32,000 bases of DNA from positions 60,001 through 92,000 of the forward strand of contig NQJD01000007.1 in assembly GCA_004284765.1 (NCBI GenBank). The letters are read 5' to 3'. The first letter of the stretch is position 1; each line of letters starts with the position of its first letter. This stretch comes from Candidatus Electronema aureum. GTDB taxonomy: Bacteria; Desulfobacterota; Desulfobulbia; Desulfobulbales; Desulfobulbaceae. Shown one piece after another: positions 1-29,071 of the stretch. Under the pieces are notes generated by a model that worked only from the letters and a program-made list of their open reading frames with translations, was not told the origin of the DNA and searched no databases. The position numbers were made by a program, and so were the translations under genes.

Positions 1-3000
1 GAAGAATGAAGAAGTAAAAAGTCGCTTGTCAGCGGTATTGTTGTTCAACTCATTAGCTTTGATTGGAGCACCGCCAAAGCGCAACGCCCCGACGAGAATA
101 GTACCCCATCCACCAGGATGCACGCACTTGGTTTTGTAATCCGCAGAAGTTGGATCGGCACATTCCGCTTCTGGTTGGAATATCTGCGCGTCAAAGATAC
201 GGGGTTTCTGATCGACATAATACTTATGCGCGTAATGCTTGTCAGCCAAGCATTTCAGATGTGGCTGGAGGTTATAGGGAATGTAGGCCCACATTTCCTG
301 ACCAAGAGCGGCCTTTCCGGTTCCACAGCTCCCGTTGACTGGTGTCACTGCGCAGTTGCCATTACTGTCATCAAGCGCGTCAGTGCAGCAGAACTGGCCC
401 TTGTTTTCAAAGTAGAAGCCACCGTTCATCGCGTGCAGCATACCGTCATTGCCACCGAAATAAACCATGTTACGACGACCTTTCCATTTTTCCACGAAAT
501 CCCGGTAGGTCGGATCGCGGTAGATGTAATGATAGGCTTCAGCAGGTTTGGCCACGACAATGGGTGTAGAATGGATGATATCGCCGAGCCGCCACGTATC
601 TGCTAACAGATCGTCAGGATCCAATTTATGGAAATAACGAGACCGCAGAGCTGTGTCTATTCTGCCATTACCGTTGTTGTCCGCAGATTCGTCACTGAGC
701 GAATCAACTCCTTGTATCCACTGAATCAGCGCGTCAAGAGCACCACGCTCCCGTCTGGTGTTGTACGCCGCGTCAGTTTCATTTAGCAAGCGTGCCTCAT
801 AGCCCGCAAAGGTTTCCCAGTCGGCAGAAGTCAAGAAATCATTACCCACCGGGCCTCGGTTGTTGTTCGCTGCGATAGTGTTGAGGGCGGCTAATTTGGT
901 ACTGTCAAGGTCTTTCAACAGGAATTGCTCTCCGTCATCTACCTTGCCATCATTATTAGCATCATTCCACGTGTAGATTTTACGATCAGTTACCACATTC
1001 ATCTTTGCCAACCTTTTATTAGCCGACCAAAGATATTTAATGTTGTTGATCTCTACGCATTTCGCGCCTGAGCATTGCGGATCAGGGTCTGTTGCTGTTT
1101 TTGCTGGCTCACCCGGACACTGCGGGCTGGTGGGGCTGCTGGCATAAAATCCGGTAATATCATAGCAGCCACGGGTTCTGTTTGCTGCGCTGCTGAAATA
1201 GAACAGCACTTGTTTGTCAGCAGGAGGATCGAGCTTGCCGTTTCCGTTGGTATCCTCATACATCAAACCAGCCGAGCTGACGAAGAGCGAATGCACATCG
1301 CCGACCCAGCTCACCTTATTATTTTTGAGCGCACCATCTAATTTCGCTTTGTCCTCATATTTTGGCCAGAAGACAGCCTGATAGACTGCGCCGGAGCCGC
1401 TGCGCGAGCTGGAGATAACCGAAGCTGCCGAACCTGCGGACGCGCGGCTAAGAATGTCGTCTAAAACTGCGTAAAGGTTGTCCTCAAGCTGCTGCGGATT
1501 CTCGCCGGGATAATAGTTATCGGTGCCGCCCTTGTCTGCGGCGTACTCCATCAGTGTTTTCGGATTGCATTCGCCAGTTCCGACATCACTCAATACGCCG
1601 GTGGTGACGACATGGGTGAAGATATTCTGCTTAGGTACCTGGTTGCCATCCGGGTCGAGGATATACCTCTTTTTGTAGATTGGCCACACATGCTGGCCCC
1701 ACCACGTCATATCATCCAGATACGTGCTGCGGAACAGCTTATCGCCGCACGGAGTTGAAGTGCCGGGTGTGAAAGCAGGCTCGGCGGTGCCGTCTCCGAT
1801 AAGATCGCCGGTCTCCTTCTTGGGAAAGTAAGCAGCTTGATTTACAGTCGTTGGACTAGCAGCGAAGGCAACAACATCTGGGTGAACATCTGTTGTGGAC
1901 TCACCTTCAGAGATTACCAAAATGTGGTTATCTTGGCACCAGAACTGCACCGGGTCTGTGTCGAGTGCGTAGTTCGTGCAGTTACCGCTGGCATCTTGCT
2001 GGAGGCAGAAATCAAGGCACTTGCCGGTGCTGTCCTTTTTCATGCAGAAAGTGTCGTTCTGGGTGTAGTAGCCCAAAGCGTTGTACAAGGCTTCACCCAG
2101 CGGTGTCCATGAAGTTCCCCGGACAGTGTTGATCGCAGCGGCCATATCATCAACATGGAGCCGTTTACTGCCGGAATATTCAGGGTCACTCGCATTGACT
2201 ACGTCATCACCTGCTTTCAGTTGCGCGATTAACTGCGCACCATCACGATTTCCAGTTGGGCAGTAGCGTGTGATACCGGGCGTAACATACGAACTCGAAC
2301 ATTCAGTGGCTGCGCCTACGTAATGGAAGGCCATCGCACCGAGTCGCAGGTCTTTCTTCACCGAATGAATAACTCCTGTAGGCCGGGTTGGTTGCTGGAT
2401 GTAGCCCTTCATGGTGGCGAGGGGATTGGTGCCGCCCATCAAGGCGATAATTCCTGAATCAGCGACCACGCCGGGAACGTTCCACGTTTGAGTGGTGTCA
2501 CCCGCTTGGTCTGAGGGATCAATTACCTCAGGTACTGCGGTGTCCGTGCAGTAGTCAATACTGGCTTGGGTAATGCAGTCATCAACATTGACAGTAGGAT
2601 CCCATCCAGCCGGTGTACTGATAGTCCGAGGAGTAGCTCCTACGGTGCAGCTGGCACCAGAGCCGTCATCCCATTGATATAGTGGTGTCCATGTTGTGCA
2701 GTCAGTTAACTTATTACTGGTACATGTATAATTGTATCCAGCCTTGTTCTTGAACCAAGGTTTTTTGTTATCTGGAGAATAGGTACACTCGGTCGCAGGT
2801 GCTGTAAAGTCGCAGCCTCCATTGGCCAAGCTCACCGCCGGTTTTGGCACACAGTTAGCCATCGAACTCTGGGCTGGTCGCCAGCAGCGGCCTATATAGC
2901 CAGCTCGCTGTACCGGATTGGTGATGTTCTTATCGTAAATGCCGTAGCAAATATAGGCACCATAAGCCGGAACAAGAGTGGAAGGCGCATAGGCAGGATT

Positions 3001-4545
3001 TTTGCTGGTGCCGGTGTACAAATCTCCACATTCTTTCTGGACAGTGCTGATGTTGCGAATTGAGTTATCTTTCCACCACTTAGAGCAAAACTGAAGACTG
3101 TGGTTCAACATCGGTCGCTGATGCGTAATTGCCGTGTCATTGGCAGGAAAGGTCTCCAAGCACTGGGTGATCGGCTGGCTCCAGTTGGCACCGTTCGGGT
3201 CTTTGTTCAGAATGGTGTCCAGCATATCCTGACATTGACCGGAGATTTGCAGGCCAGTCGCAGTGACAGCCAGCACCTCTAGGCGAGAGGTGTCATCGCT
3301 GCTATCAACCCGATCTTGGAGAAAAGGTAAATCGCTGTCCTCATATTTGGAGCCTCGAACACCGAGCGACAAATAACCAGCAGTGCCGTCCAATTTTACT
3401 TGCTTGATCATCCTCGAACCAGAACAACCCCGATGTTCACCGACCAGCACATTTTCATAATAATTGTGCTTGCCGCCAGTCAGAATCTTCTTCTCTACAT
3501 CAAACTTAGAGGCCATCGCCCAGTTAAGGAAATTGCCGCGCGCGACAAACGAAGTCACTTTTTTTGGTGTAGAAGTGTTGATAGTAAGACAGAGGTTATC
3601 AGCGCGGGTGTATTTTGTTCCAGTACCAGAGCAGGCTGCGGTGGCAGATGACGGGGCTGTTGCCAGACTCTCAAATGCACCTTGCCGCAGGCTCTTCCAT
3701 TTTGTCGTGTCTTTGCCCGGCACATTGCCGCTGTTGCTGTTGACCAAAGACTGATACAGAATCCCGTTATAAGTAACGATGCTGCCGATCGAATACGGCT
3801 CACTACTCATCCACGTATATTCGACCGGCACCCAGTCTGTTACACCCGTCTTGTCGGTGAGTTTTAGCCCGGTACTTGTACCACCAGCGGCGGTGTAATA
3901 AAGCTGCGGGCCGTACCAAGTAAAAGAATTTGCCGGATAAGTTATACCGCTTGCCCATTTGCTACGGCTGGGTGTGATACCACTGATGCCCAGCTTGTTC
4001 CACTCAACCCCGGTGCTTTTGTCGATGCTTGCGCCCGTCGATACTCCTGCTGTGGCTGCCTCATATATATTTCCGTAAGCCTGTACCCTGCTGCCAACAG
4101 CGTATGTGGTGCCGCTCGTCCACTCATCAGGAGGATATGCTTTCGTCCAAGTGTACCAAGTATCGCTTTTGAAATAACCGCCATAGACATACGCGGTGTC
4201 ATAGCCAGTGACAGTGGTGATCTTGGTGGTTGTGGTACTGCCACCCTGCGTTGAGACAGAGACAATGTCATAATCGCCATCCATGCAACGCTGATACGTC
4301 GCTTGGAGGGAGTTGTTAATCATCACCGGCGTTGTGCCATTAAAAATTTTTCCCTGCTTGCTGTAGGCTGCGTCCAGCATCGAGCCGGAGTTGTCTAACA
4401 CCATCAGCAGGTTGGGCTTGGCACCAGATGAAAGGAACGGAGGAATACCGACTCCTTCGCTGCATGTTTCAATAGCTCGCCCGATTGTTGGCTGTAGTGC
4501 TACTACAGCTAAAAAGGACAGGGCTGCATAACTTGTCTTTTTCAT
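1..4545 (-). CDS. pilY1: PilY1-like type IV pilus tip adhesin/biogenesis protein; 5' end complete, 3' end runs off the window (at least 1515 codons)
   Basis: Absent from the ORF track because no stop codon lies in the window. The reverse frame is open from the ATG (cat at 4543-4545, GGGAGA SD just upstream) to base 1. It has a signal peptide (MKKTSYAALSFLAVVALQP) and a VWA/MIDAS motif DNSGS at aa 51-55. C-terminal PilY1/PilC propeller motifs are WRLGDIIHSTPIVV, VYFGGNDGMLHAMN and GQEMWAYIPYN. It lies directly downstream of the pilX-like gene, as in fimU-pilVWXY1 operons. Confidence 0.88.
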   Translation of the reverse strand, partial: MKKTSYAALSFLAVVALQPTIGRAIETCSEGVGIPPFLSSGAKPNLLMVLDNSGSMLDAAYSKQGKIFNGTTPVMINNSLQATYQRCMDGDYDIVSVSTQGGSTTTTKITTVTGYDTAYVYGGYFKSDTWYTWTKAYPPDEWTSGTTYAVGSRVQAYGNIYEAATAGVSTGASIDKSTGVEWNKLGISGITPSRSKWASGITYPANSFTWYGPQLYYTAAGGTSTGLKLTDKTGVTDWVPVEYTWMSSEPYSIGSIVTYNGILYQSLVNSNSGNVPGKDTTKWKSLRQGAFESLATAPSSATAACSGTGTKYTRADNLCLTINTSTPKKVTSFVARGNFLNWAMASKFDVEKKILTGGKHNYYENVLVGEHRGCSGSRMIKQVKLDGTAGYLSLGVRGSKYEDSDLPFLQDRVDSSDDTSRLEVLAVTATGLQISGQCQDMLDTILNKDPNGANWSQPITQCLETFPANDTAITHQRPMLNHSLQFCSKWWKDNSIRNISTVQKECGDLYTGTSKNPAYAPSTLVPAYGAYICYGIYDKNITNPVQRAGYIGRCWRPAQSSMANCVPKPAVSLANGGCDFTAPATECTYSPDNKKPWFKNKAGYNYTCTSNKLTDCTTWTPLYQWDDGSGASCTVGATPRTISTPAGWDPTVNVDDCITQASIDYCTDTAVPEVIDPSDQAGDTTQTWNVPGVVADSGIIALMGGTNPLATMKGYIQQPTRPTGVIHSVKKDLRLGAMAFHYVGAATECSSSYVTPGITRYCPTGNRDGAQLIAQLKAGDDVVNASDPEYSGSKRLHVDDMAAAINTVRGTSWTPLGEALYNALGYYTQNDTFCMKKDSTGKCLDFCLQQDASGNCTNYALDTDPVQFWCQDNHILVISEGESTTDVHPDVVAFAASPTTVNQAAYFPKKETGDLIGDGTAEPAFTPGTSTPCGDKLFRSTYLDDMTWWGQHVWPIYKKRYILDPDGNQVPKQNIFTHVVTTGVLSDVGTGECNPKTLMEYAADKGGTDNYYPGENPQQLEDNLYAVLDDILSRASAGSAASVISSSRSGSGAVYQAVFWPKYEDKAKLDGALKNNKVSWVGDVHSLFVSSAGLMYEDTNGNGKLDPPADKQVLFYFSSAANRTRGCYDITGFYASSPTSPQCPGEPAKTATDPDPQCSGAKCVEINNIKYLWSANKRLAKMNVVTDRKIYTWNDANNDGKVDDGEQFLLKDLDSTKLAALNTIAANNNRGPVGNDFLTSADWETFAGYEARLLNETDAAYNTRRERGALDALIQWIQGVDSLSDESADNNGNGRIDTALRSRYFHKLDPDDLLADTWRLGDIIHSTPIVVAKPAEAYHYIYRDPTYRDFVEKWKGRRNMVYFGGNDGMLHAMNGGFYFENKGQFCCTDALDDSNGNCAVTPVNGSCGTGKAALGQEMWAYIPYNLQPHLKCLADKHYAHKYYVDQKPRIFDAQIFQPEAECADPTSADYKTKCVHPGGWGTILVGALRFGGAPIKANELNNNTADKRLFTSSFF

Positions 4546-4576: not shown

Positions 4577-5260
4577 TCATGGATAATTGCAGGCACCACT
4601 TGAACCAAGGACATGGCCGTATTGGATGCAGATTACTGATTCGCTGCCGTCCCGACCCACATGCTGCACGTTGATATCATAGACCAGCGTGGCTCCGCCG
4701 CTGCCCATTCCTTTACCAACACCCTCATAGCCTGCTGCCATCTGAAGGGCCGAGCCTTCGGTCAACTTGGTGTTGCCGCCAATGTTGATATTGGAATGAG
4801 GCTGATTGTTGGTTGCCACCGGATCAAATAGACCACTCGGAGCTGGGGCGGTGAAAACCGCTGGAAAAACAAGGTTGCGGTTCGTATCGCTGGGAATTGC
4901 GATACCATTCGGCGCGTAGTTTCTCCAAAATCCCAGTGAATTACCTTCAATTGCCAAATCGAATCCCGGTGCGCCCACCATCCGCATGACCGAATTAGCA
5001 GGATTAGCGGTATCGGTGGTGTTGGCCCTAAAACCAAGGCAGGCAACGCTCTGTTCCAGTGACTCTGAAGCCAGCTCTGTTGCCGCGTCTGCGCTGTAGA
5101 AGGTCTCTTTATGTAAGCGGTCATTCATAGCAATCCGCCATTCGATATCCGTGTTCTGGTTCACTGCAATCCCCAGCAGAGTGAGAACAAGAAGAATGAG
5201 TAAGGAGGCGACCAGTACAAAGCCTTCTTCGCCGCTTCGGCATTTTTTTCGCTTTTTCAT
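4577..5260 (-). CDS. pilX: PilX-like minor pilin / PilX N-terminal domain protein (227 aa)
   Basis: The ORF-track call 4577..5353 was trimmed to the internal ATG at 5258-5260, which has an AAAGAGG SD. The N-terminus MKKRKKCRSGEEG|FVLVASLLILLVLTLLGIAV matches the PilX_N pattern, and the gene sits between the pilV-like gene and pilY1. Confidence 0.6.
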   Translation of the reverse strand: MKKRKKCRSGEEGFVLVASLLILLVLTLLGIAVNQNTDIEWRIAMNDRLHKETFYSADAATELASESLEQSVACLGFRANTTDTANPANSVMRMVGAPGFDLAIEGNSLGFWRNYAPNGIAIPSDTNRNLVFPAVFTAPAPSGLFDPVATNNQPHSNINIGGNTKLTEGSALQMAAGYEGVGKGMGSGGATLVYDINVQHVGRDGSESVICIQYGHVLGSSGACNYP

Positions 5261-5273
5261 GGCGACCTCTTTG

Positions 5274-5771
5274 CTAATTTTTCTTTGCATTCTGTTTAAT
5301 GTAGTTAAACACTGCCAGCTCTTGCTCGCCAAGTCCTCTATCAACGGTGACAATCACTCGGATGTGTTTAGGTTTTTGCTCATCCTGCTCCGGCGTAACA
5401 TCAATTATGCTATTCATGGAACAATTTTTTGCAACATTCCAATACATTCTGTAGAGCGGCACGGTACCGCTACTATCGTCGCCGTCTGCACGCGCTGGAT
5501 TGCCAGCAGATGCAGGCTTACGGTCGTTCAGCCCGTTGCAACCATCGTTGTCAGTATCCTTAAGCTGGATGTAGTCTTGGCCGAGCAATAGCTCAATGCG
5601 GTCGGTTGCCCATGTTGCCCCGCTGGTGATGCTGTTAGCGGTGAGATTTTTTTTGATCACCGCAGACTGCATTCCAAAAAGACCGAGAATGCCGATGGTA
5701 AAAATTGCCATTGCCATCAGCGTTTCAATGACAGTGAAGCCGGTTTGACCGGTATTGCGTGTATTTTTCAT
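5274..5771 (-). CDS. pilV: PilV-like type IV minor pilin (165 aa)
   Basis: It has a prepilin leader and N-methylation motif (MKNTRNTGQTG|FTVIETLMAMAIFTIGILGLFGMQ). This is typical of PilV-type minor pilins and fits the operon context. Confidence 0.7.
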   Translation of the reverse strand: MKNTRNTGQTGFTVIETLMAMAIFTIGILGLFGMQSAVIKKNLTANSITSGATWATDRIELLLGQDYIQLKDTDNDGCNGLNDRKPASAGNPARADGDDSSGTVPLYRMYWNVAKNCSMNSIIDVTPEQDEQKPKHIRVIVTVDRGLGEQELAVFNYIKQNAKKN

Positions 5772-5773
5772 AG

Positions 5774-6475
5774 CTATAGCCCAACGTTGCGGAGTTCAAT
5801 GGAAGTAACGAGCAGCCGCCGATGAAAATGATCATTGGGCGGGTTGCTGGAGCCGTTGTTGAGACTTGCCCATGCCGTGCCAGAACTTGGTATATATTGT
5901 GTGGTGTCCGTATGCCGTGGGTCAGGATACGAGGCACGGATCAGGATAGAGAGCCGGACAATGCGGGTGTCAGCAATGTTTGTAGCCTCAGGTGGCGGAG
6001 TTCCGTTACCCTGAAGATATAAGAATTCGATACCATCCACGCCCTCGGCTATAGTTCTTGTCTGGCCGGGTCCGACTACTCCGGTTCCGATGTTGATCAG
6101 GGTCAGATTGCGGTCCAAATTATTGTTGTTTATTGAATACATAACTCGGTTCAACACCCATTGATTGGTGGTGCTGTCTCGGTCGCAATATTCAAAGAAA
6201 AATTCCTGAGATTTTTTGATCAGGATGCCGCCATTATCTTTATTGACTCTGCAAACACCTCCTGGATCATACCCAGCCATCCGTATATCCCTATTCATGA
6301 AATCAAGAACTGACCTGAGCTTCTGCTGCATCTCCGTCACTTGTTCCTGAACAGTGTATGACCGCTGCTGAATGGTGTACACACCATATATTCCACCAAT
6401 CACCATGCTGGAGATGGCCATTGAGACCATGATCTCAATCAGGGTGAATCCGTTTTTTTTTGGCTTCTTTTTCAT
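5774..6475 (-). CDS. pilW: PilW-like type IV minor pilin (233 aa)
   Basis: The N-terminus is MKKKPKKNG|FTLIEIMVSMAISSMVIGGIYGVY, followed by LRSVLDFMNRDIRMAGYDP, which matches the PilW signature ...RDIRMAGY. An AGGTG SD lies upstream. Confidence 0.7.
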   Translation of the reverse strand: MKKKPKKNGFTLIEIMVSMAISSMVIGGIYGVYTIQQRSYTVQEQVTEMQQKLRSVLDFMNRDIRMAGYDPGGVCRVNKDNGGILIKKSQEFFFEYCDRDSTTNQWVLNRVMYSINNNNLDRNLTLINIGTGVVGPGQTRTIAEGVDGIEFLYLQGNGTPPPEATNIADTRIVRLSILIRASYPDPRHTDTTQYIPSSGTAWASLNNGSSNPPNDHFHRRLLVTSIELRNVGL

Positions 6476-6515
6476 AATTCACCTGCTTTTGCTTGACGAT
6501 GCTTCCGCAGCCTGT

Positions 6516-7034
6516 TCAATCTTTGTCCCAAGATGTTCCGTTGAATCTTCTTACCTTGACAGTTCCGTATGTTGTTGTCGTGATGGCATAGCATACATCT
6601 TGATTTTGATTATGTAAGTACGTAGTGCCTTGATTTGCTGTTCCTGTAACTCCAAAAGTAATGTTTGTTTTGATCTCGGTGAATGATTCATTGTCCCATT
6701 TTTTGACTGCCTTTCCTCTGCCGTAATCAACATTTTCGTAATCGGACAGATTTTTTCTGAATTCCCCTGAGTCCCATTTTTTGTTATCATTGCTATCAAA
6801 ATAATAATACCCCGGGCTGACTGATGTAATAAATTTTACAGGAACTTTTTTGTTTTTCCTCACCGCCAGTAACCTCGCCTTTTGCATGTCCGCATATAAA
6901 TTTCTGGCCGCGTTTTTCAGTCGTTTCTCTGGCAGAGTGCGGAGAAAACTGGGTAACGATATTGCTGACAGTATTCCAATCAAGGCGATAACTACCATCA
7001 ACTCAACAAAGGAGAAACCAGCTTCAGTTCTCAT
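6516..7034 (-). CDS. GspH/FimT/FimU-family minor pilin, paralog B (172 aa)
   Basis: The N-terminus is MRTEAG|FSFVELMVVIALIGILSAISLPSFLRTLPEKRLKNAARNLYADMQKARL. The prepilin motif plus the conserved 'R...A...l...l..AR' region is characteristic of the GspH/FimT family. Confidence 0.75.
   Translation of the reverse strand: MRTEAGFSFVELMVVIALIGILSAISLPSFLRTLPEKRLKNAARNLYADMQKARLLAVRKNKKVPVKFITSVSPGYYYFDSNDNKKWDSGEFRKNLSDYENVDYGRGKAVKKWDNESFTEIKTNITFGVTGTANQGTTYLHNQNQDVCYAITTTTYGTVKVRRFNGTSWDKD
6888..7016. repeat. Copy B of a 129-nt direct repeat (5' coding region of the FimT-like paralogs)
   Basis: Hand alignment with 7441..7569 gives 103/129 identical bases and no gaps. Confidence 0.8.
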
Positions 7035-7053
7035 TTGTGCAGCATTAATTCCA

Positions 7054-7611
7054 TTATTCCCATGAAGAACCGCTGTATCTTCTTAATCGCACCGAGCCAA
7101 AATCTGTTGTCGTTGCAGCATAACAGACATCAGTGCTTTGATCTGTAAGAAAAACACTGGCGGCATCTGATGCACCTATCTTGCCAAATTTAATGTTATT
7201 CGCTATAGTACAGGCATTGGCAACTACTGTATTCCAAGCACAGCTACCTGTAGGAACACTGGCAAAACCATAACCAACTGCGCCAGTTTCAGACAAATTC
7301 CTTCTGAATTCACTTGCATCCCAGATACCGTTATCATTAATATCAAAATAATAAAAATCATTTTTATTACCTGTATTATCAACAAATATCATTCTGATAT
7401 CTCTGTTTTCTTTAACGGCCTGTAATCTTGCTCGTTGCAAGTCCGAATATAAATTCCTTGCCGCGTTTTTCAGTCGTTTTTCAGGTAAGCCTCTCAGAAA
7501 ACTTGGCAGGACTATTCCTGATAATATTCCAATTAAGGCAATAACTACCATCAGCTCGACAAAGGAGAACCCTGACTTGTCCTTCGCGTATCGTTTGATT
7601 CTTTCCGTCAT
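7054..7611 (-). CDS. GspH/FimT/FimU-family minor pilin, paralog A (185 aa); first gene of the minor-pilin operon
   Basis: The N-terminus is MTERIKRYAKDKSG|FSFVELMVVIALIGILSGIVLPSFLRGLPEKRLKNAARNLYSDLQRARL. An AAGGTG SD lies 8 nt upstream. It is paralogous to 6516..7034 over its whole length. Confidence 0.75.
   Translation of the reverse strand: MTERIKRYAKDKSGFSFVELMVVIALIGILSGIVLPSFLRGLPEKRLKNAARNLYSDLQRARLQAVKENRDIRMIFVDNTGNKNDFYYFDINDNGIWDASEFRRNLSETGAVGYGFASVPTGSCAWNTVVANACTIANNIKFGKIGASDAASVFLTDQSTDVCYAATTTDFGSVRLRRYSGSSWE
7441..7569. repeat. Copy A of a 129-nt direct repeat (5' coding region of the FimT-like paralogs)
   Basis: Hand alignment with 6888..7016 gives 103/129 identical bases and no gaps. 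Confidence 0.8.
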
Positions 7612-7812: not shown

Positions 7813-9204
7813 TTACAATCCGATATTCGCATCATCAGGCAGCTTCAATTTACCCAAAAGCGAAGGATAGCTGATCTCCAGCAGCTCGGCAGCCCGGCTC
7901 TTATTGCCGCCGGTGACCTCCATTGCTCGTTCAATTAGCCACTGTTCCACAATCTGTCGCCCTTTTTTAATCGATGAGGTACTCAACAGCAAGTCAAGGG
8001 GATGACCGTTCCTACGTCCCGCCAGCATTTTCGGTAAGTTATCCGGTTGAATTAGCCTATCGTCAGTCAGTAGCACGGCCCGTTCCAGCACATTTTCCAA
8101 TTCACGGACATTACCCGGCCAAGAATGAGTAAGCAACATCTGCAAAGCAGCCGGAGCCGCACCTTCAATCTCAGGCCGGTTCATGCTAATCGCAAATTTT
8201 TCAATAAAATGGTCACAGAGCGGTGGGATGTCGGCGATGCGCTCCCGAAGCGGTGGCAGATGAATATTGACCACATTCAGTCGATAAAAAAGGTCTTCCC
8301 TAAAGTGGCCTTGCCGAACTTCTTCGGTCAAGTCGCGAGCTGTAGCCGCGAGGATTCGTACATCAACCTTTCGGCTGACTGTTGCACCAACGCGCCGAAT
8401 ATCTTGCTCTTGCAAAACCCGGAGCAACTTAACCTGGATAGATAACGGCAGCTCGCCAATTTCATCCAAAAACAGAGTGCCGCTGTTGGCTTCCTCAAAC
8501 AGGCCTTTTCGATCCCTATCCGCGCCAGTGAAAGCGCCCCGGACATGGCCAAAAAACTCGCTTTCTATCAAATTTTCAGGAATACCACCGCAGTTGACCG
8601 CCAAAAAAGGATTGGCAGCTCTGCCACTTTTTTCGTGAATTCCCCGCGCGACCAGCTCTTTGCCGGTGCCGGATTCGCCGGTGATCAGCACGGTGGTGCT
8701 GTGCTTGGCCACTTTGTCGGCAAGCTGGAAAATCGCCTGCATAGCCTTACTGCTGCCGATCATTCCGCCCAGTCCAGCGGTTTTTTCCAACCCGGCTATC
8801 TTTTTTTTCAGAAAAATATTCTCCCGGCGCAACCGCTCACGCTCCTCGGCTTTTTTCAACACCAACACTACTTCATCGGTCTTGAAAGGCTTGGAGATGA
8901 AATCATAAGCTCCCTGCTTCATGGCCTCAATTGCAGTATCAACCGTGCCAAAAGCCGACATCATAATGATCACTGCCGAATGCTTGACTTCGACTGCGGC
9001 CTTGAGAAAGGAGATCCCATCCATTTCAGGCATTCTGATGTCGCAAAGGACAAAATTAACGACATTTGTTTGCAGCAATTCAAGTCCAGCCCGACCATGC
9101 GCAGCGGTTTCTACAGCATAACCTTCGCCCTTGAGCAAAGCAGAGAGCATGTGCCGCATGTTTTCTTCGTCGTCAATCACCAGCACCTTTGCTGTCTCAG
9201 TCAT
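7813..9204 (-). CDS. pilR: Sigma54-dependent response regulator, PilR/NtrC family (REC + AAA+ + Fis-type HTH)
   Basis: The REC domain shows VLVIDDE...CDIRMPEMDG, Walker A is GESGTGKE, and the sigma54-contact loop GAFTGA is present. A C-terminal HTH (NKSRAAELLEISYPSL) closes the protein. The start was moved from 9219 to the ATG at 9202-9204 because AAGGAGGG sits 5 nt upstream of it. The gene overlaps the kinase stop by 8 nt. Confidence 0.9.
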   Translation of the reverse strand: MTETAKVLVIDDEENMRHMLSALLKGEGYAVETAAHGRAGLELLQTNVVNFVLCDIRMPEMDGISFLKAAVEVKHSAVIIMMSAFGTVDTAIEAMKQGAYDFISKPFKTDEVVLVLKKAEERERLRRENIFLKKKIAGLEKTAGLGGMIGSSKAMQAIFQLADKVAKHSTTVLITGESGTGKELVARGIHEKSGRAANPFLAVNCGGIPENLIESEFFGHVRGAFTGADRDRKGLFEEANSGTLFLDEIGELPLSIQVKLLRVLQEQDIRRVGATVSRKVDVRILAATARDLTEEVRQGHFREDLFYRLNVVNIHLPPLRERIADIPPLCDHFIEKFAISMNRPEIEGAAPAALQMLLTHSWPGNVRELENVLERAVLLTDDRLIQPDNLPKMLAGRRNGHPLDLLLSTSSIKKGRQIVEQWLIERAMEVTGGNKSRAAELLEISYPSLLGKLKLPDDANIGL

Positions 9205-10672
9205 TATTCCCTCCTTCATCAGCTAAAGGCAGACAGATAGAAATGGTGCTGCCCTCGCCTGCTTTACTTTCCATTTTCATGAACCCGCCTGCGTTTTCAA
9301 CCATTGAGCGGGAAACCGACAACCCCAGTCCAGTGCCTTTGCCTATTTCCTTGGTTGTGTAAAAAGGATCGAAGACGGCAGCAAGCTGCTCCTCAGTAAT
9401 GCCAATGCCGTTGTCTTCAATGCGGATGCGCAAAAAATGCGGCTCAGACTGATCGGTGGACAGCACGATCTGCCCGTTATTTCGCTCAATACCGCTACTG
9501 ATCGCATCCGCACTATTAAGCAGGCAGTTGAGCAAAACTTGACGTAGCTGGTCGGGATCGATATTAATTCTGTCCTGCGCTGCCTCCGCTTGGACAGTCA
9601 ATTTAATCTGCTTGAACGCAGACTGCACCTGCACCATTTCTACCACGGAATCTAACAGCGCGTGGACAAAAAAAATCTCTGGTCTGCCTTTGGAGACTCT
9701 GGCACAATTCAACAATTGGCGGATAAGACCGCTCACTCGTTGCAATTCTTGATCGGCCCGACAAAGAAAATCCTGATTCTCCTCGCTCTGGCCAGAGCGA
9801 GCTAACAGGTCGAGATAGCCCTGAATCACCGCCAAGGGATTGCCGATTTCATGCGCCAACCCAGCGGCCATTTTTCCCACTGAAGCCAACTTTTCTGCCC
9901 GAATCATCTCCTGCTGCCGTTCCTGAAGCTGCCGATTAGCAACCTCCAGCTCGGCTACAGTTGTTCGCAAAATCGTCCTGTCTTGCTCGATTTTTGCCAA
10001 CATACTGTTCAAGCTGCTCGCCAGCTGGTTGAACTCGCTGCCAGAATGATCAGCGGCAAACCAGACAGCCTCCTGCTCAGTATGCCGATCAGCTAACTGC
10101 ATTAATCGCTCCACAGGCCGAACAATGAGCTTGGTCATCCTGAAAAAGCTGATCACGCCGAGTACCAGCAGATTGACAACTATATAGATAAAAACGATTT
10201 TCTCGGCTTGCCAGAGCGTGGTGAATAACGGCAGCAGCGAGCGCGTCACCGCAACTACGCCGATTATTTGGCCTTGCCGCAGCACCGGTCGTGCACTGGC
10301 TAAAAACGGTTGTTGCCCCCGCAACAAGTCCGCTAAAGAGGCTGAGGCGCGCATTGTCAGCCTGCCGGTCTGAACTGCTTCGGTCGCCGTCTCGGCTATC
10401 AGTGGCGGCAATTCAGTATGGATGTCGTCCCGTGGCAACATCATAATCTGCCCTGATTCTTCGCCGGGATAAAATTCAGTGAAAGAAAATGCCTGCTTCA
10501 GATATGCCTTTTCTGCTGTCAGCTGGTATGCAATATGAAGCAGCACCGCCTGATCACGCTCGGCCTCCCGCTGGAGGGCATCGCGTTTCCAGAACATAAG
10601 CAGCACCATATTCACCAGCAACATGGCGATGAGCAGTAGCGCGGCGACGGTCAAAATCAGTTTGGTTTTCAT
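9197..10672 (-). CDS. pilS: Sensor histidine kinase partner of PilR (2 TM, periplasmic domain, HAMP, HisKA, HATPase_c)
   Basis: TM1 is LILTVAALLLIAMLLVNMVLLMFW and TM2 is IVFIYIVVNLLVLGVISFF. The H-box is AAGLAHEIGNPL, the N-box is LLNCLLNSADA, G1 is DNGIGI and G2 is GTGLGLSVS. It is translationally coupled to pilR. Confidence 0.8.
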   Translation of the reverse strand: MKTKLILTVAALLLIAMLLVNMVLLMFWKRDALQREAERDQAVLLHIAYQLTAEKAYLKQAFSFTEFYPGEESGQIMMLPRDDIHTELPPLIAETATEAVQTGRLTMRASASLADLLRGQQPFLASARPVLRQGQIIGVVAVTRSLLPLFTTLWQAEKIVFIYIVVNLLVLGVISFFRMTKLIVRPVERLMQLADRHTEQEAVWFAADHSGSEFNQLASSLNSMLAKIEQDRTILRTTVAELEVANRQLQERQQEMIRAEKLASVGKMAAGLAHEIGNPLAVIQGYLDLLARSGQSEENQDFLCRADQELQRVSGLIRQLLNCARVSKGRPEIFFVHALLDSVVEMVQVQSAFKQIKLTVQAEAAQDRINIDPDQLRQVLLNCLLNSADAISSGIERNNGQIVLSTDQSEPHFLRIRIEDNGIGITEEQLAAVFDPFYTTKEIGKGTGLGLSVSRSMVENAGGFMKMESKAGEGSTISICLPLADEGGNND

Positions 10673-10803: not shown

Positions 10804-10919
10804 CAGGGAAGGAAAAACGATACCCTATGACAGAAAACGCTGGTGAGATAACTTGACTTGATTACGACAACTACCCTGAGTACAAAGAAAAATAGTTCTT
10901 TGCTGCTTCATCGGAAAAC

Positions 10920-10935
10920 TGGCACAGTTCTTGCT
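10920..10935 (+). promoter_or_regulatory. Sigma54 promoter of pilA
   Basis: TGGCACAGTTCTTGCT has a perfect TGGCAC -24 element, correct GG-N10-GC spacing and a TTGCT -12 element. It lies about 80 nt upstream of the pilA ATG. Confidence 0.8.
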
Positions 10936-11016
10936 TCATTTAAAGCAAATGAGACAAACGCCGATAGCGAGGCACGTACGCCCCCGGCGCACAACACACC
11001 AGAACGGAGGAACACC

Positions 11017-11451
11017 ATGAAACTGAATCAATTGAAAATGAAAGCCAACGAGAAAGGCTTCACCCTGATCGAGCTGATGATCGTTATCGCCATCATCGGT
11101 ATCTTGGCGGCAGTAGCAATTCCTAACTTCATTGCGTATCGTGATAAATCGTATTGTTCAGCTGCTGAATCGGATGCAAATGCGATTGCTGCTTCCTTGG
11201 CAGATTATTATGCCATTCCTACACATACAGCTGCAATCACAGGTGCTATTGCCAACGGCGCAACACAGCTTCTCGGTATGAAAGTATCACAATTGTCAGG
11301 AACTAATACCGCTGGTATTTCTGGAACAATAGATAGGTTAGTTATTACTGTAACTGACGGCTCTAAACGTTGCCCTACAGACTACCGGAAGGCTATTGAT
11401 GATTGGAGTGATACTGCTGCTGGTGGTGTTTTCACAAAGACAATGGAATAA
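11017..11451 (+). CDS. pilA: Type IVa major pilin PilA (144-aa prepilin, 130-aa mature)
   Basis: The ORF-track call 10858..11451 was trimmed to the ATG at 11017, which has a GGAGG SD at 11007-11011. The N-terminus is MKLNQLKMKANEKG|FTLIELMIVIAIIGILAAVAIPNFIAYR, with Glu5. The mature protein has two Cys (C33, C105). An alternative start at 11038 would give a 7-aa leader. Confidence 0.9.
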   Translation: MKLNQLKMKANEKGFTLIELMIVIAIIGILAAVAIPNFIAYRDKSYCSAAESDANAIAASLADYYAIPTHTAAITGAIANGATQLLGMKVSQLSGTNTAGISGTIDRLVITVTDGSKRCPTDYRKAIDDWSDTAAGGVFTKTME

Positions 11452-11640: not shown

Positions 11641-13743
11641 TTGAAAAAATTCAACCGTATGAATAAATCTATAGTTAACTGGAATCATTCATTCGTATTT
11701 TTTTTAATTGCATGCATTGTTTTTGTTACATACTCTAACACTTTCAATGCGTCATGGCAGCTCGATGATGAGCCAAATATAACCAACAACAGCAAAATAC
11801 ATGTTACCACGTTAAATTTTCATCAAATAAACAATACGTTTAGAGCAAATCCAATTGTCAATGATAAACTTTACCGCCCTCTTCCGTGCCTAACCTTTGG
11901 TCTAAATTGGTATGTAGGGCAAGGTAATGTATTTGGATATCATATAGTTAATCTTGCAATCCATATTTTGACCACTTGGTTTCTTTTTTTATCTCTGCAT
12001 CTGCTCCTGCACATCCATTATCAAAAAAAATATCCGGCGCAATTTTTTTTCACCGCTGCTTTGTTTGGCACACTATTTTGGGCATTGGCTCCCATTCAGA
12101 CCCAAGCTGTTACATATATAGTTCAGCGCATGGCATCAATGGCGGCAATGTTCACTATTATTGCCATCTACGCTTATTTGCGGGGGAGAACAGAAAGAAA
12201 ATACGCATGGTTCATCCTCTGTTTACTTTCTTTTTTTGCCGCTTTAGCCAGTAAAGAAAATGCTATTCTTTTGCCCCTTTCCTTGGTACTTATTGAATTT
12301 GCCTTTTTCCCTCATCGGATCACAAAAAAACAGCTATTTCGCTTGATATTTAGCAGTCTCATAATCTTGATAGCGGGCTTTCTTTTTGTTCGCTACGGCT
12401 TAGGTCTCGTTCCGTTTAAGCTATCCAATCCCCTAAGCTTCCTTGACAGCTACGCAAACCGTTCCTTTTCATTTAGTGAGCGCATCCTTACTCAGCCTCG
12501 CATTGTGCTGATGTATCTTTCTCAGATATTTCTGCCAGTGGTAGAACAATTTTCCATCGAGCATGATATTGTTATGTCAAGCTCCCTATTTTTTCCTTGG
12601 ACAACATTGCCTGCAATGTTAACAATTTTACTGTCTATATTAGCAGCTATTTTTTTCTTGAAAAAATATCCACTAATCTGCTTCCCTGTTCTTTTTTTCT
12701 TCCTAAATCATGTCGTAGAATCAACTATTTTGCAATTAGAGCTGATTTTTGAACACCGCAATTACCTCCCTTCATTTTTTCTTTTCCTTCCTATAGGCGT
12801 TCTAATTGCCCGCATTTTATACAGTAATCCGAAGCAGTCGGCTTTCCGACAGGTCACGGCTGCGTTGTGTTCAATTTTTTTTCTGATTGTTTTTGGTCAA
12901 GCGACCTATACTCGTAATTTAGCTTGGGCAACAGAATATACCTTATGGGCAGATGCCATTCGCAAAGCTCCTAACAGTTCAAGAGCAGCACATCATTTGG
13001 GTAAATGGCATTATTATTCTAAGAACTACAATCACGCAATTTATTATTTTCAATTAGCATTACGCAGCACAGATAAAGCGCCAACACCGAAATATAGCAA
13101 ATACCTTGTTCTTAATGCATTAGGATTAAGCTATGCTGCTCTTGGAAAACACAATCAGGCAATCCTGTATCTTAATCAGTGTTTAGAATTAGGCGATTAT
13201 GCAGAATGTTTACAGAACAGATCCGTTGTGTATGCTGACAAAAAAATGTATAAGCAGGCATTGACCGATGCTACACAGTTAGCCAATTCTGTTACTGATT
13301 ACATTTATCAATTAAATGTAGCCATCGTTGCTTTTGAAGCCGGAAATTATGCAACTTCTTATGGGTATCTAAAAAAAATAATCAATTTTTCTCTTGAAAA
13401 CCATCAAGTCATGCATTTAGCTGGTCTTTTGCTGATGAAAGAAGGTGCCTATCCAAATAGCTTATTTTTTTTAAAGCAGGCAAATAAGCTCGCGCCTGAT
13501 GAAATCAGTTATCAGCTTACTCTCGCTGCTGCATATCATGTGGATCATCAACCTGCGTTAACAGAAACGGTTCTGAATGATATATTCAAAAAATACTCGC
13601 TACCTGTCATTACCAATGCTCTAAAGGAGTTCAGACGGCAGAATAGCTTCGTTATCAATGCAGTCAGCTTCATCGAACGTCGTATTGACAGCATGATCAA
13701 AACTAATGCGATAAACCATGAACAACAACCACCTGCACCGTAA
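11641..13743 (+). CDS. Polytopic GT-C-type membrane protein with C-terminal TPR repeats, TMTC/DUF1736-like putative protein O-glycosyltransferase
   Basis: The ORF-track start is TTG at 11641, and an ATG at 11659 is a possible alternative. Loop-1 motifs are WQLDDEPNITNN and YRPLPCLTFGLNWYVGQGNVFGYHIVNLAIHIL. These match the FVFDD..AI..N / YRPL..LTF.LNY....YH..N..H pattern of TMTC O-mannosyltransferases. The protein has at least 9 hydrophobic segments followed by about 250 aa of TPR-like repeats. The gene is strongly AT-rich. Confidence 0.65.
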   Translation: MKKFNRMNKSIVNWNHSFVFFLIACIVFVTYSNTFNASWQLDDEPNITNNSKIHVTTLNFHQINNTFRANPIVNDKLYRPLPCLTFGLNWYVGQGNVFGYHIVNLAIHILTTWFLFLSLHLLLHIHYQKKYPAQFFFTAALFGTLFWALAPIQTQAVTYIVQRMASMAAMFTIIAIYAYLRGRTERKYAWFILCLLSFFAALASKENAILLPLSLVLIEFAFFPHRITKKQLFRLIFSSLIILIAGFLFVRYGLGLVPFKLSNPLSFLDSYANRSFSFSERILTQPRIVLMYLSQIFLPVVEQFSIEHDIVMSSSLFFPWTTLPAMLTILLSILAAIFFLKKYPLICFPVLFFFLNHVVESTILQLELIFEHRNYLPSFFLFLPIGVLIARILYSNPKQSAFRQVTAALCSIFFLIVFGQATYTRNLAWATEYTLWADAIRKAPNSSRAAHHLGKWHYYSKNYNHAIYYFQLALRSTDKAPTPKYSKYLVLNALGLSYAALGKHNQAILYLNQCLELGDYAECLQNRSVVYADKKMYKQALTDATQLANSVTDYIYQLNVAIVAFEAGNYATSYGYLKKIINFSLENHQVMHLAGLLLMKEGAYPNSLFFLKQANKLAPDEISYQLTLAAAYHVDHQPALTETVLNDIFKKYSLPVITNALKEFRRQNSFVINAVSFIERRIDSMIKTNAINHEQQPPAP

Positions 13744-14899
13744 ACAAACCCTTCTCTGGCTTGCCGTCCTGCTGCTTGCCGTGACAGGTTTCACTGTCGC
13801 CCTTTATTCCGCCCACAGCCATTATCAGAACTACACCGACCCACTTTACAGCAGCTTTTGTGCCATCAGCCAAGCCATCAACTGTGACACGGTCGCGCAA
13901 AGTCCGTGGTCAGTTATATTTGCAATCCCGGTCGCGTGGTGGGGTGTGCTGTTCCATGTTTTCCTCCTGCTCATCCTCCTGACAGAAGACCGTCGCAATC
14001 TTGCAGCTTGGCAGGGATTCTTCTTTGTGATGCTCATCGCCTCCGCTGTCACACTGGGGCTGGCGGCCATCGCCGTCACGCAGATAAAATCGCTTTGCCT
14101 TGTTTGTCTTGTCACCTACGCCATCACCTTTGCCCTGACCTACACTTGCTGGATTGGCAGACGGCGGTGCAAAGAGGCTGTTGAAAAAAGCACCGAAGGA
14201 TTCAGCGCAACATTCAGCAAGAAAGACATGCTGCGCAATTACAACGTCGCCGCCGGGGTGTTCTGCGTCAGCCTGCTGCTGCTATATGGCCTGATGCCCC
14301 GCTACTGGCTGCTTGCTCCGGCGCAGGCGGACATCAGTGGCCTGCCGCAGGGCGTGACTGCTGACGGTCATCCTTGGATCGGAGCGGAAAAACCGCAGCT
14401 GACCATAACGCAATTTTCTGATTACCAGTGCTTTCAATGTAGCAAAATGTATTTCTTGTTACGCCAGTTCTTGATTGCGCACCCCGACACGCTGCGTTTT
14501 GTTCATCGTCATTATCCGATGGATCATAAAGTCAATTCAGTCATCGTGCCGGATGCGTTTCACGAAGGTTCAGGAGATTTGGCGAAAGTTGCCATCTTAG
14601 CCGCAATACGGAATAAATTCTGGTCAACTAATGAGCTGCTCTACTCGATGATGCGCAGCGGCGGCAAGGTCAAAGAAATTTCTCTCAAAGAACTTGCGGA
14701 GAAAACTGGACTTGATAACAACGAACTTTCCGCTGCCTTGTCGCATCTGGCCATAGCAGAAATGCTCCGCCGGGACATCTGGGACGGCATGAAGCTGGGT
14801 ATTACCGGCACACCGGCTTTTGAAATTAACGGCAAAGTCTATCAAGGTCATATTCCTGCCGAAATCCTCAAACAGATTGCCGAGCTGCCGAAAAAATGA
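13718..14899 (+). CDS. VKOR-family quinone reductase fused to a DsbA-like thioredoxin domain (disulfide bond formation)
   Basis: The N-terminal half has 4-5 TM segments with a loop Cys pair (FCAISQAINC, C48/C56) and a membrane CxxC (SLCLVCL, 14096-14107). The C-terminal soluble domain carries FSDYQCFQCSK (CxxC at 14429-14440). The gene overlaps the upstream gene by 26 nt. Confidence 0.8.
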   Translation: MNNNHLHRKQTLLWLAVLLLAVTGFTVALYSAHSHYQNYTDPLYSSFCAISQAINCDTVAQSPWSVIFAIPVAWWGVLFHVFLLLILLTEDRRNLAAWQGFFFVMLIASAVTLGLAAIAVTQIKSLCLVCLVTYAITFALTYTCWIGRRRCKEAVEKSTEGFSATFSKKDMLRNYNVAAGVFCVSLLLLYGLMPRYWLLAPAQADISGLPQGVTADGHPWIGAEKPQLTITQFSDYQCFQCSKMYFLLRQFLIAHPDTLRFVHRHYPMDHKVNSVIVPDAFHEGSGDLAKVAILAAIRNKFWSTNELLYSMMRSGGKVKEISLKELAEKTGLDNNELSAALSHLAIAEMLRRDIWDGMKLGITGTPAFEINGKVYQGHIPAEILKQIAELPKK

Positions 14900-28537: not shown

Positions 28538-29071
28538 ATGAGTGAAAACGGACAAAAAGGCCTATTGATAGTCTATACCGGCAACGGCAAGGGCAAGACC
28601 ACTGCCGCCCTCGGCTTGACCTTGCGCGCTCTCGGTCACGGTCACCGGGTTTGCTTTATTCAGTTCATCAAAGGCAGCTGGAAGTACGGCGAGCTGACCG
28701 CAGTGGAACGTTTTGCCGATTTGCTCGACTTTCATGTGATGGGCCGTGGTTTCACTTGGAAATCCGATGATCTGGAAAAAGATGCCGCTGCTGCCCGTGA
28801 GGGCTGGGAACTGGTACAAAAGATCATCGCCGAAGGAAGACATCAGCTGGTAGTTTTGGACGAGCTGACCTACTTGGTCAGGTACAACATGCTGTCTGAA
28901 CAGGAAATCTTAGACGTGCTGGCGCGACGCGGGCCGTCTGTGCATGTGGTGGTTACGGGCCGAGGAGCTGGAGAACAGCTCATGCAGGCTGCTGATTTAG
29001 TCACCGAGCTGCGCGAGGTTAAGCACCCCTACCGACAAGGAATCAAGGCGCAGAAGGGAATTGAATTCTAA
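28538..29071 (+). CDS. cobO: Cob(I)yrinic acid a,c-diamide / cob(I)alamin adenosyltransferase (CobO/BtuR type)
   Basis: It shows GLLIVYTGNGKGKTTAALGLTLRALGHGHRVCFIQFIKG...GE and VLDELTY, and has the typical length of about 177 aa. Confidence 0.9.
   Translation: MSENGQKGLLIVYTGNGKGKTTAALGLTLRALGHGHRVCFIQFIKGSWKYGELTAVERFADLLDFHVMGRGFTWKSDDLEKDAAAAREGWELVQKIIAEGRHQLVVLDELTYLVRYNMLSEQEILDVLARRGPSVHVVVTGRGAGEQLMQAADLVTELREVKHPYRQGIKAQKGIEF

Follow-up and report, generated by a model that had tools for sequence, protein, structure and literature searches.

The window analysed here is a 32,000-nucleotide stretch of the genome of Candidatus Electronema aureum (assembly GCA_004284765.1, contig NQJD01000007.1, positions 60,001 to 92,000). 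Its left end is occupied by pilY1, a gene for a putative type IV pilus (T4P) tip protein that contains three tandem modules resembling carbohydrate-binding modules (CBMs) of families 5 and 12. The gene lies on the minus strand at positions 1 to 4545; the window holds the first 1515 of its 2139 codons, and the gene continues past the left window end. Its open reading frame starts at the ATG at position 4545, with a GGGAGA ribosome-binding site 7 nt upstream. Residues 1 to 24 (MKKTSYAALSFLAVVALQPTIGRA; 4474 to 4545, minus strand) form a probable Sec-type signal peptide, recognised in the sequence by eye. The reverse-complement translation of positions 3688 to 4125 gave exactly the 146 residues quoted in the initial annotation of this DNA, i.e. 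residues 141 to 286 of the protein, which places the feature on the minus strand; a plus-strand reading of the same positions yielded a nonsense translation and was rejected. The first module, R1 (residues 141 to 185; 3991 to 4125, minus strand), is supported by a sub-threshold Pfam match, its own orthologue profile and a predicted local distance difference test (pLDDT) score of 76-96 in structural models. R2 (residues 196 to 241; 3823 to 3960, minus strand) is a diverged module recognised by its homology to R1 and R3 in hhalign comparisons, and R3 (residues 244 to 286; 3688 to 3816, minus strand), the most canonical of the three, is supported by a Pfam match above threshold and by the R3 profile.

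The mutual homology of the three modules was assessed at two levels. In Smith-Waterman alignments of the window sequence alone, R1 and R2 scored 72 (reached by none of 5000 shuffles), R1 and R3 47 (2 of 5000), and R2 and R3 36 (92 of 5000). When profiles built from the orthologous units of relatives (alignments A2, A3 and A4) were compared by hhalign, the relationship was found for all three pairs, with a probability of 97.9% for R1 and R2 (E 5e-13), 97.9% for R1 and R3 (E 4e-13) and 96.2% for R2 and R3 (E 3e-9). The exact translation and these hhalign values bear out the three consecutive units of about 45 residues that the initial annotation had proposed. Its triple array stands, but the start it gave for R3 does not; it was set at E249, five residues late, so that the first conserved Trp of the unit, W245, was missed. 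Tandem Repeats Finder detected no tandem repeat at the DNA level, indicating that the triplication is old and can be seen at the protein level only.

The assignment of the modules to CBM5/12 was then evaluated with the Pfam model CBM_5_12 (PF02839; gathering score, 26.2 bits). The isolated region of residues 141 to 286 scored 36.1 bits (E 6.7e-9), as a Pfam search of this segment should have done if the initial annotation was right, and the N-terminal 437 residues scored 30.4 bits. Of the CBM5/12 signatures that had been claimed for all three units, that of R3 was upheld by Pfam, since this module exceeded the threshold by itself (27.9 bits, model positions 1-43) and was the sole unit to do so; R1 fell short of it (21.9 bits, over model positions 1-30 only), and R2 gave no direct Pfam match. 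The whole protein scored 19.4-20 bits, below the gathering score, so that the identical full-length protein in public databases, P0166, carries no precomputed Pfam call, unlike many orthologues (37.5-68.4 bits for whole orthologue proteins). Standard pipelines would give P0166 no domain calls at all (CBM_5_12, 19.4 bits; PilY1, 22.2 bits; NCBIfam, nothing), while the isolated repeat region passes.

Orthologue profiles were also searched against the sequences of the Protein Data Bank (PDB). With the 146-residue fragment as a single query, phmmer returned weak, non-significant matches only, and the profiles were needed. The R3 profile matched the tandem CBM12 domains of a Vibrio chitin oligosaccharide deacetylase (COD) at E 1.5e-8, the chitin-binding domain (ChBD) of Pyrococcus furiosus (2RTS) at E 2e-6 and 1ED7 at E 7e-5; the R1 profile matched the Bacillus circulans chitinase A1 (ChiA1) ChBD 1ED7 at E 1.2e-4, and the R2 profile reached the Vibrio deacetylase CBM12 at E 0.04 only. 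Taken together, the profile searches reach the CBM12 and CBM5 chitin-binding domains of 9JEO, 4NY2, 3WX7, 2RTS and 1ED7. The comparison sequence YTAGQLVTYNGKTYKCLQPHTS..GWEP, which had been attributed to Serratia ChiB, is wrongly named and comes from the B. circulans ChiA1 domain of 1ED7.

Structure prediction gave a concordant picture. A 180-residue AlphaFold model had a pLDDT of 68.5 overall and of 76-92 for R1, and its Foldseek alignment to the Vibrio COD tandem CBM12 covered about 97 columns (E 8e-5). Single modules matched the Streptomyces griseus ChiC ChBD 2D49 (template modelling score 0.71, root-mean-square deviation 2.5) and the ChiA1 ChBD 1ED7 (template modelling score 0.74). A larger model of 1076 residues, for which 62 homologues were used, had a mean pLDDT of 84.9, a predicted template modelling score (pTM) of 0.83 and a pLDDT of 75-96 in the repeat region; its only credible PDB matches by Foldseek were CBM12 pairs and receptor-binding proteins of phage Milano. 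By Foldseek, the models contain units of about 45 residues with the small beta-sheet "ski-boot" fold. The core aromatics are in place, with Y148, Y203 and Y251 and W182, W238 and W283 as equivalents of Y265 and W299 of CjCBM5. Collectively, the assignment of the repeats to the CBM5/12 fold and sequence superfamily holds, with R2 included only via its similarity to R1 and R3.

The identity of the host protein was examined next to that of its modules. pilY1 is the last gene of a minor-pilin operon, with the minor pilins directly upstream on the same strand (4577 to 7611), and the same arrangement was seen as called genes at locus L075. The sole PDB match of the non-repeat part was Pseudomonas aeruginosa PilY1 (3HX6), at E 1.6e-4 with the window protein as query; the orthologue of Electronema sp. 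JM matched it at E 2.3e-6 and a 36-sequence family profile at E 3.2e-14. Orthologues are named in public records as 'type IV pilus assembly protein PilY1', 'PilC/PilY family type IV pilus protein' or 'hypothetical protein'. From residue 1320 onwards (1 to 588, minus strand), PF05567 and 3HX6 matches mark the probable start of the C-terminal PilY1 beta-propeller, which is cut by the window end. The PF05567 scores of 22.6 bits for the window protein (residues 1320-1374) and 22.2 bits for full-length P0166 are both below the gathering score of 28.1, a threshold that is passed by the more distant relatives L021 (36.9 bits) and L052 (54.2 bits). NCBIfam gave no match for the repeat fragment, the full-length protein or two orthologues. 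Judged by its sequence and gene order, the host protein is accepted as PilY1, and the earlier identification is borne out by the last place in the minor-pilin operon, the 3HX6 match and the orthologue names. The identical P0166 (2139 residues) is encoded on GCA_942492785.1 / OW818638.1, a 2.94-Mb chromosome; according to PMC11976967, this assembly is that of Electronema aureum GS, a cable bacterium from freshwater that is maintained as a single-strain enrichment.

Two further properties of the PilY1 protein were noted. More than 20 cysteines between residues 28 and 1432 (window 1 to 4545, minus strand) are invariant or nearly so among 36 orthologues; examples are C28, C87, C374, C438, C462, C487, C506, C533 and C608, and further ones are C666, C749, C762, C870, C933, C993, C1127 and C1143. 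As read from the sequence, these conserved cysteines imply a probably disulfide-rich, extracellular PilY1 of about 2100 residues, about twice the size of P. aeruginosa PilY1. In addition, the stretch directly before the predicted beta-propeller contains two loops that are EF-hand-like and rich in Asp/Asn, NDANNDGKVDDGE and DNNGNGRIDTAL, at about positions 940-980 and 655-693 of the window (minus strand; about residues 1194-1206 and 1285-1297). They are similar to the calcium-binding loops described for PilY1, and the Pfam model EF-hand_5 gave a faint match, to residues 1288-1297 only.

The three modules sit within the N-terminal domain of PilY1, between a DxSxS motif like that of a metal ion-dependent adhesion site (MIDAS) and the next conserved helix. 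The MIDAS-like motif (D51-N-S-G-S55; 4381 to 4395, minus strand) has the columns D51, N52, S53 and S55 invariant among orthologues (alignment A8). The core of the N-terminal domain shared by PilY1 proteins resumes after the insertion at the conserved GNFLNW...KILTGG helix (residues 337-358; 3472 to 3537, minus strand), in which G337, L340, N341, W342, S346, K347, D349, K352, L355, T356, G357 and G358 are invariant; helices predicted at residues 313-332 of the 1076-residue model support it. In relatives that lack the repeats, the DxSxS-to-helix spacing is only about 95 residues. Further elements of the host domain that resemble a von Willebrand factor A (vWA) domain, T814 and D886, are invariant, and the model shows an alternating beta/alpha pattern. 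At the level of motifs, this suggests a heavily inserted vWA domain as the host. PF28373.1, a Pfam family that may represent the PilY1 N-terminal domain, is among the precomputed matches of most homologues.

The distribution of the modules was surveyed in one genome per species with a tight alignment (A6) as query and a custom repeat hidden Markov model (HMM) for the repeat counts. We found 74 related loci, the best in Ca. Electronema sp. JM (73% identity) and the next in Electrothrix species; many are from non-cable Desulfobulbales, for example from Desulfogranum, Desulfosediminicola, Desulfopila, Desulfobulbus and Desulfocapsa. A homologue search with an alignment of the repeat region (A5) returned 3 proteins only. 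Three units between the DxSxS motif and the GNxLNW helix are found in cable bacteria and most Desulfobulbales. Between 0 and 6 units per protein occur overall and between 0 and 4 at this site, and some proteins have 1-2 additional units at a second site near residues 840-1030 (approximate limits). The carriers of the second site are L021, L027, L032, L033, L036, L040, L041 and L056, and L060 and L063 have units after the GNxLNW helix, not before it. The CBM5/12-like module appears to have been inserted into PilY1 more than once. Class-specific HMMs showed the 1-2-3 order to be positionally conserved in about 35 species, and R1-R3 are old positional paralogues. Among 93 database homologues, exactly three units were present in 45, at least one in 67 and none in 26; the repeat-less homologues include distant ones from Geotalea and Nitrospirota. 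In comparisons of Electrothrix and Electronema proteins, identity was 35-43% in the repeats and 59-61% in the PilY1 core, indicating that the repeats diverge faster.

Given the tip location of PilY1 with the minor pilins, which is established in P. aeruginosa and Myxococcus xanthus, with the N-domain at the extreme pilus tip (PMC7541494), the E. aureum protein would by analogy stand at the distal pilus tip with its N-domain outermost. We favour the reading that the three modules are an adhesive part of this tip and bind a surface, most likely a glycan, through a non-canonical site, and we put its probability at roughly 0.5. According to this reading, the modules would form part of an adhesive head that gives multivalent, low-affinity binding to a surface, most likely to a glycan or polysaccharide, and retraction of the attached pilus could then bring about anchoring or surface motility. 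Two precedents suggest that the modules may be part of an adhesive head: M. xanthus PilY1.1 has the lectin-like domain DUF4114, and Streptococcus sanguinis PilC has a lectin module. The copy number of 0-6 and the second insertion site are as expected of an accessory surface module, and divergence faster than that of the core is typical of exposed adhesin parts.

Several observations weigh against such a ligand-binding role. The first are the missing direct Pfam match for R2 and the sub-threshold score of the whole protein described above. The second concern the residues that contact chitin in characterised domains. The chitin-binding surface of CBM5 is formed by a pair of adjacent aromatics, Y-W or W-W, that is almost fully conserved and needed for binding; a further Tyr and Trp make up the hydrophobic core (PMC8449059). 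A register check on ChiC 2D49 (KWW) and CjCBM5 6Z40 (NYW) placed the pair 4-5 residues past the third conserved Tyr. The corresponding residues are T165-A166 in R1, A220-G221 in R2 and V268-N269 in R3, and the interval from the third Tyr to the terminal Trp contains no aromatic residue at all in R1 and R3. For CBM12, no Trp in any of the three units aligned to Trp687 in the GWEP loop of ChiA1, which we take to be the key chitin residue of that domain. A surface aromatic platform for a ligand, whether of the CBM5 pair or the CBM12 Trp687 type, is thus missing from all three modules, and the conserved aromatics that are retained correspond to those reported as the hydrophobic core (PMC8449059). 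With regard to the host domain, the vWA family was not recovered by Pfam, by searches of PDB sequences with the single protein or the 36-sequence profile, or by Foldseek with the 1076-residue model. The pTM of 0.83 of that model suggests that the modules pack on the rest of the domain, which is compatible with a purely structural role. Finally, the role of T4P in cable bacteria is not established, gliding motility being one suggestion (PMC10580974).

The residues at the contact positions were also compared across the family in 182 repeats from PilY1 proteins at the 74 loci. The conserved aromatic positions of the profile are 5, 11, 24 and 45, with position 11 aromatic in 98% and position 45 in 94% of the repeats; these two correspond to the core aromatics of the literature. 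The positions equivalent to the CBM5 pair, 28-29, are aromatic in at most 1%. In place of the pair, the family has the signature A-x2-G-G-T-S-x-G...D-T-G-V-x-W, with the Asp present in 88%; in the E. aureum protein it is D175, D231 and D279. A conserved loop rich in Gly, Ser, Thr and Asp thus stands in for the contact aromatics, and for this reason the ligand is unlikely to be crystalline chitin bound in the canonical manner.

These data bear most directly on the possibility that the modules are true chitin- or cellulose-binding CBMs that target the pilus to chitin or another crystalline sediment polysaccharide. In its favour, the best sequence and fold matches include CBM12 and CBM5 domains that bind chitin experimentally, R3 exceeds the Pfam CBM_5_12 threshold, and a tandem arrangement increases the avidity of CBMs, as it does in the Vibrio deacetylases; moreover, aromatics outside the canonical site (W210, Y211 and Y217 of R2, Y157 of R1 and Y259 of R3) might be exposed. 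However, the CBM5 pair and the GWEP-loop Trp of CBM12 are absent from all three units, as the pair is from nearly all the family repeats, conservation of the modules extends over a freshwater cable bacterium and a range of sulfate reducers that are not known for a chitin lifestyle, and the nearest repeat arrays are those of phage tail fibres. We therefore consider genuine chitin or cellulose binding unlikely. A defined chitin or cellulose target, as a deduction from the fold, finds no support, given the absent contact residues and the frequency of the same repeat type in phage tail fibres, whose target is not chitin.

The relation to phage fibres emerged from a search of the repeat profile against 1.84 billion representative proteins, in which 2816 proteins matched at E<=1e-3. 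The best 150 of these comprise 24 PilY1-like proteins and 126 unrelated poly-repeat proteins; the copy number of the latter has a median of 9, and as many as 44 stretches are matched. The poly-repeat proteins that were sampled contain CBM_5_12 arrays by Pfam, one of them together with a Phage Tail Collar domain; PHROG 9851, 'tail fiber protein', is matched by every one of them. The whole triple repeat of the window aligns to phrog_9851 as well (E 2.5e-7, residues 1-144 of the fragment). Foldseek against predicted viral structures (BFVD) returned large tail proteins over 160-180 columns with E values down to 2e-8, and the Foldseek matches include the phage receptor-binding proteins 8FQC (Agrobacterium phage Milano) and 9RKV (phage 7-7-1). 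This kind of module is therefore also placed by phages on receptor-binding fibres and is not solely of the chitinase type. The resemblance is one of modules only: the HMM match comes without phage context, and the E. aureum protein is not counted as a member of a phage tail-fibre family. The poly-repeat set (among P0019-P0165) includes very large public proteins with up to 44 tandem CBM5/12-like repeats, e.g. P0020 (4341 residues) and P0030 (5585 residues), and the smaller proteins sampled match phage tail-fibre PHROGs. One paper considered as a precedent for CBM5 in tail fibres (PMC8540738) proved irrelevant, 'CBM_5' being just a serial label there.

The phage arrays lend some weight to a second possibility, namely that the modules are mainly structural and have no ligand of their own; as a rigid spacer or scaffold rich in beta structure, they would give the N-domain its shape, extend it, or shield the MIDAS-like site. 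Such a role would resemble a shaft-building role of these repeats in phage fibres, and arrays of the size seen in 126 of the best 150 matches look more fibre-building than binding-site. The conserved positions, which are core residues and the Gly-rich loop, and the fixed packing suggested by the pTM of the large model point in the same direction. On the other hand, the copy number of 0-6 and the retention of the same core in repeat-less relatives indicate that the modules are dispensable for the fold, the near-invariant Asp (88%) and the G-T-S loop in each unit look like a functional site, and the modules lie within the variable, tip-exposed N-terminal domain (PMC7541494). A purely structural function is accordingly judged rather unlikely, though it is the strongest competitor of adhesion.

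Adhesion through the modules could also be directed at other bacteria. In this variant, the modules would recognise a bacterial surface glycan, either the sheath or exopolysaccharide (EPS) of the cell itself or that of its neighbours, and would mediate filament-filament or cell-cell contact and not attachment to a substrate; it is a sub-case of the adhesive reading and has no separate mechanism. Phage receptor-binding proteins directed at bacterial envelopes contain CBM5/12-like repeats (8FQC, 9RKV; phrog_9851), binding of its own EPS has been proposed for M. xanthus PilY1.1 (PMC9109919), and dynamic filament-to-filament contacts are described for cable bacteria (PMC12449579). Its basis is analogy, however, and the modules are equally conserved in unicellular Desulfobulbales, so that their role would not be specific to cable bacteria. 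We regard this variant as very doubtful. A broader proposal can be formulated, which we consider improbable but worth stating: a three-module glycan-binding tip head, with a non-canonical site in the G-T-S/D-T-G loop, might let cable bacteria and their Desulfobulbales kin grip a specific polysaccharide (their own sheath or EPS, or sediment polymers), might underlie gliding or filament contacts, and might also explain host recognition by phage fibres.

The favoured adhesive reading places the E. aureum modules among several known systems. With the CBM5 and CBM12 domains (1ED7, 2D49, 3WX7, 4NY2, 9JEO) they share the W...Y..G..V.Y.G..Y.A...W framework, the core Tyr and Trp and the small all-beta fold, and with the Vibrio chitin oligosaccharide deacetylases (3WX7, 4NY2, 9JEO) also the tandem arrangement. 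Unlike these domains, they have the G-G-T-S-x-G...D-T-G-V-x-W loop instead of the contact aromatics, they are inserted within a pilus tip protein and not attached to a glycoside hydrolase or esterase, and one of them, R2, is too diverged for a direct HMM match. The phage tail-fibre arrays (PHROG 9851, 8FQC, 9RKV and the BFVD tail proteins) agree with them in the repeat period and in an [AH]-T-S-x...D-x3-W loop without a WW pair. They agree as well in occupying the distal, target-contacting part of a filamentous appendage, insofar as the proposed tip location of E. aureum PilY1 is correct. However, the phage repeats reside in dedicated fibre proteins, where they number up to 44 (the median is 9 for the non-PilY1 matches), whereas E. 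aureum has three positionally fixed copies in a cellular PilY1, encoded in a chromosomal pil operon without prophage context.

The closest parallels in architecture are other PilY1 proteins. Like P. aeruginosa PilY1 (vWA) and M. xanthus PilY1.1 (DUF4114, lectin-like) and PilY1.3 (vWA), the E. aureum protein is encoded after the minor pilins and combines a probable C-terminal PilY1 propeller with a variable, putatively tip-located N-terminal domain. According to a published proposal, a carbohydrate-binding-type module in the PilY1 N-domain determines what the pilus adheres to (PMC7541494, PMC9109919); the lectin-like DUF4114 of M. xanthus PilY1.1 was proposed to bind EPS, and modular pilins are known from S. 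sanguinis (PMC9109919). The E. aureum protein differs from the P. aeruginosa and M. xanthus proteins in that its module is CBM5/12-like, that it is about twice as long (2139 residues), and that it is rich in conserved cysteines. As in the modular pilins of S. sanguinis (PilB, vWA; PilC, lectin), an adhesion or lectin module is grafted on a pilus-tip component; there, however, the module is of another fold and is carried by a pilin proper of a Gram-positive T4P, whereas in E. aureum it resides in the non-pilin PilY1.

Modular PilY1 heads, CBM5/12 modules and precomputed PF02839 matches on many orthologues were already known, and the domain call itself is not new. A literature search found no paper on CBM5/12 modules in any PilY1 or on PilY1 in cable bacteria. 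The CBM5/12-like insert would add a third module type to the swappable adhesion heads of PilY1, after the vWA and the DUF4114 lectin-like domain. As a conserved, modular and probably adhesive insert, it offers a concrete, testable handle on the unexplained T4P of cable bacteria. It further connects a PilY1 module with a very common, uncharacterised phage-fibre repeat without the classical chitin residues, and the ligand of one could inform that of the other. A 150-residue fragment lends itself to expression and to tests with candidate ligands, and a single-strain enrichment culture of E. aureum GS is available (PMC11976967).

The minor-pilin genes upstream of pilY1 in the same operon (4577 to 7611, minus strand) were recognised by the Pfam models N_methyl, GspH, PilW and PilX_N. 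By Pfam, they comprise, all on the minus strand, two GspH/FimU-FimT-like genes (7054-7611 and 6516-7034), pilW (5774-6475), a pilV-like gene for an N_methyl pilin (5274-5771) and pilX (4577-5260; PilX_N). Upstream of this operon lies a pilS-pilR-type two-component system (7813 to 10672, minus strand), a pair made up of a histidine kinase (HisKA/HATPase_c) and a sigma-54 activator (Response_reg/Sigma54_activat/HTH_8). Divergently, on the plus strand, there follow a pilin-like open reading frame (10858-11451), a TPR protein of 700 residues (11641-13743), a VKOR-DsbA fusion for disulfide-bond formation (13718-14899) and a PMT_2-type glycosyltransferase (14896-16587). These four genes may represent a cluster for pilin glycosylation and oxidative folding; in Electrothrix gigas, glycosyltransferases adjoin pilA (PMC10580974).

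Downstream of pilY1, beyond the window, the corresponding region of L075 (12639-13916) contains a gene for ATP sulfurylase (sat) on the same strand and no pilE; beyond sat, a Cas3-like helicase and an IS110 transposase are found. A prophage or tail-fibre origin of the pilY1 gene was considered and rejected on account of its location in the pil operon, the housekeeping surroundings and the lack of phage neighbours. Farther along the window, genes for a GGDEF-EAL protein (25728-28250, minus strand) and a cNMP-binding protein with DUF4388 (29068-30201, minus strand) are accompanied by the housekeeping genes hemA, a leuB-type dehydrogenase gene, asd, prs, corA, plsY and rsmG.

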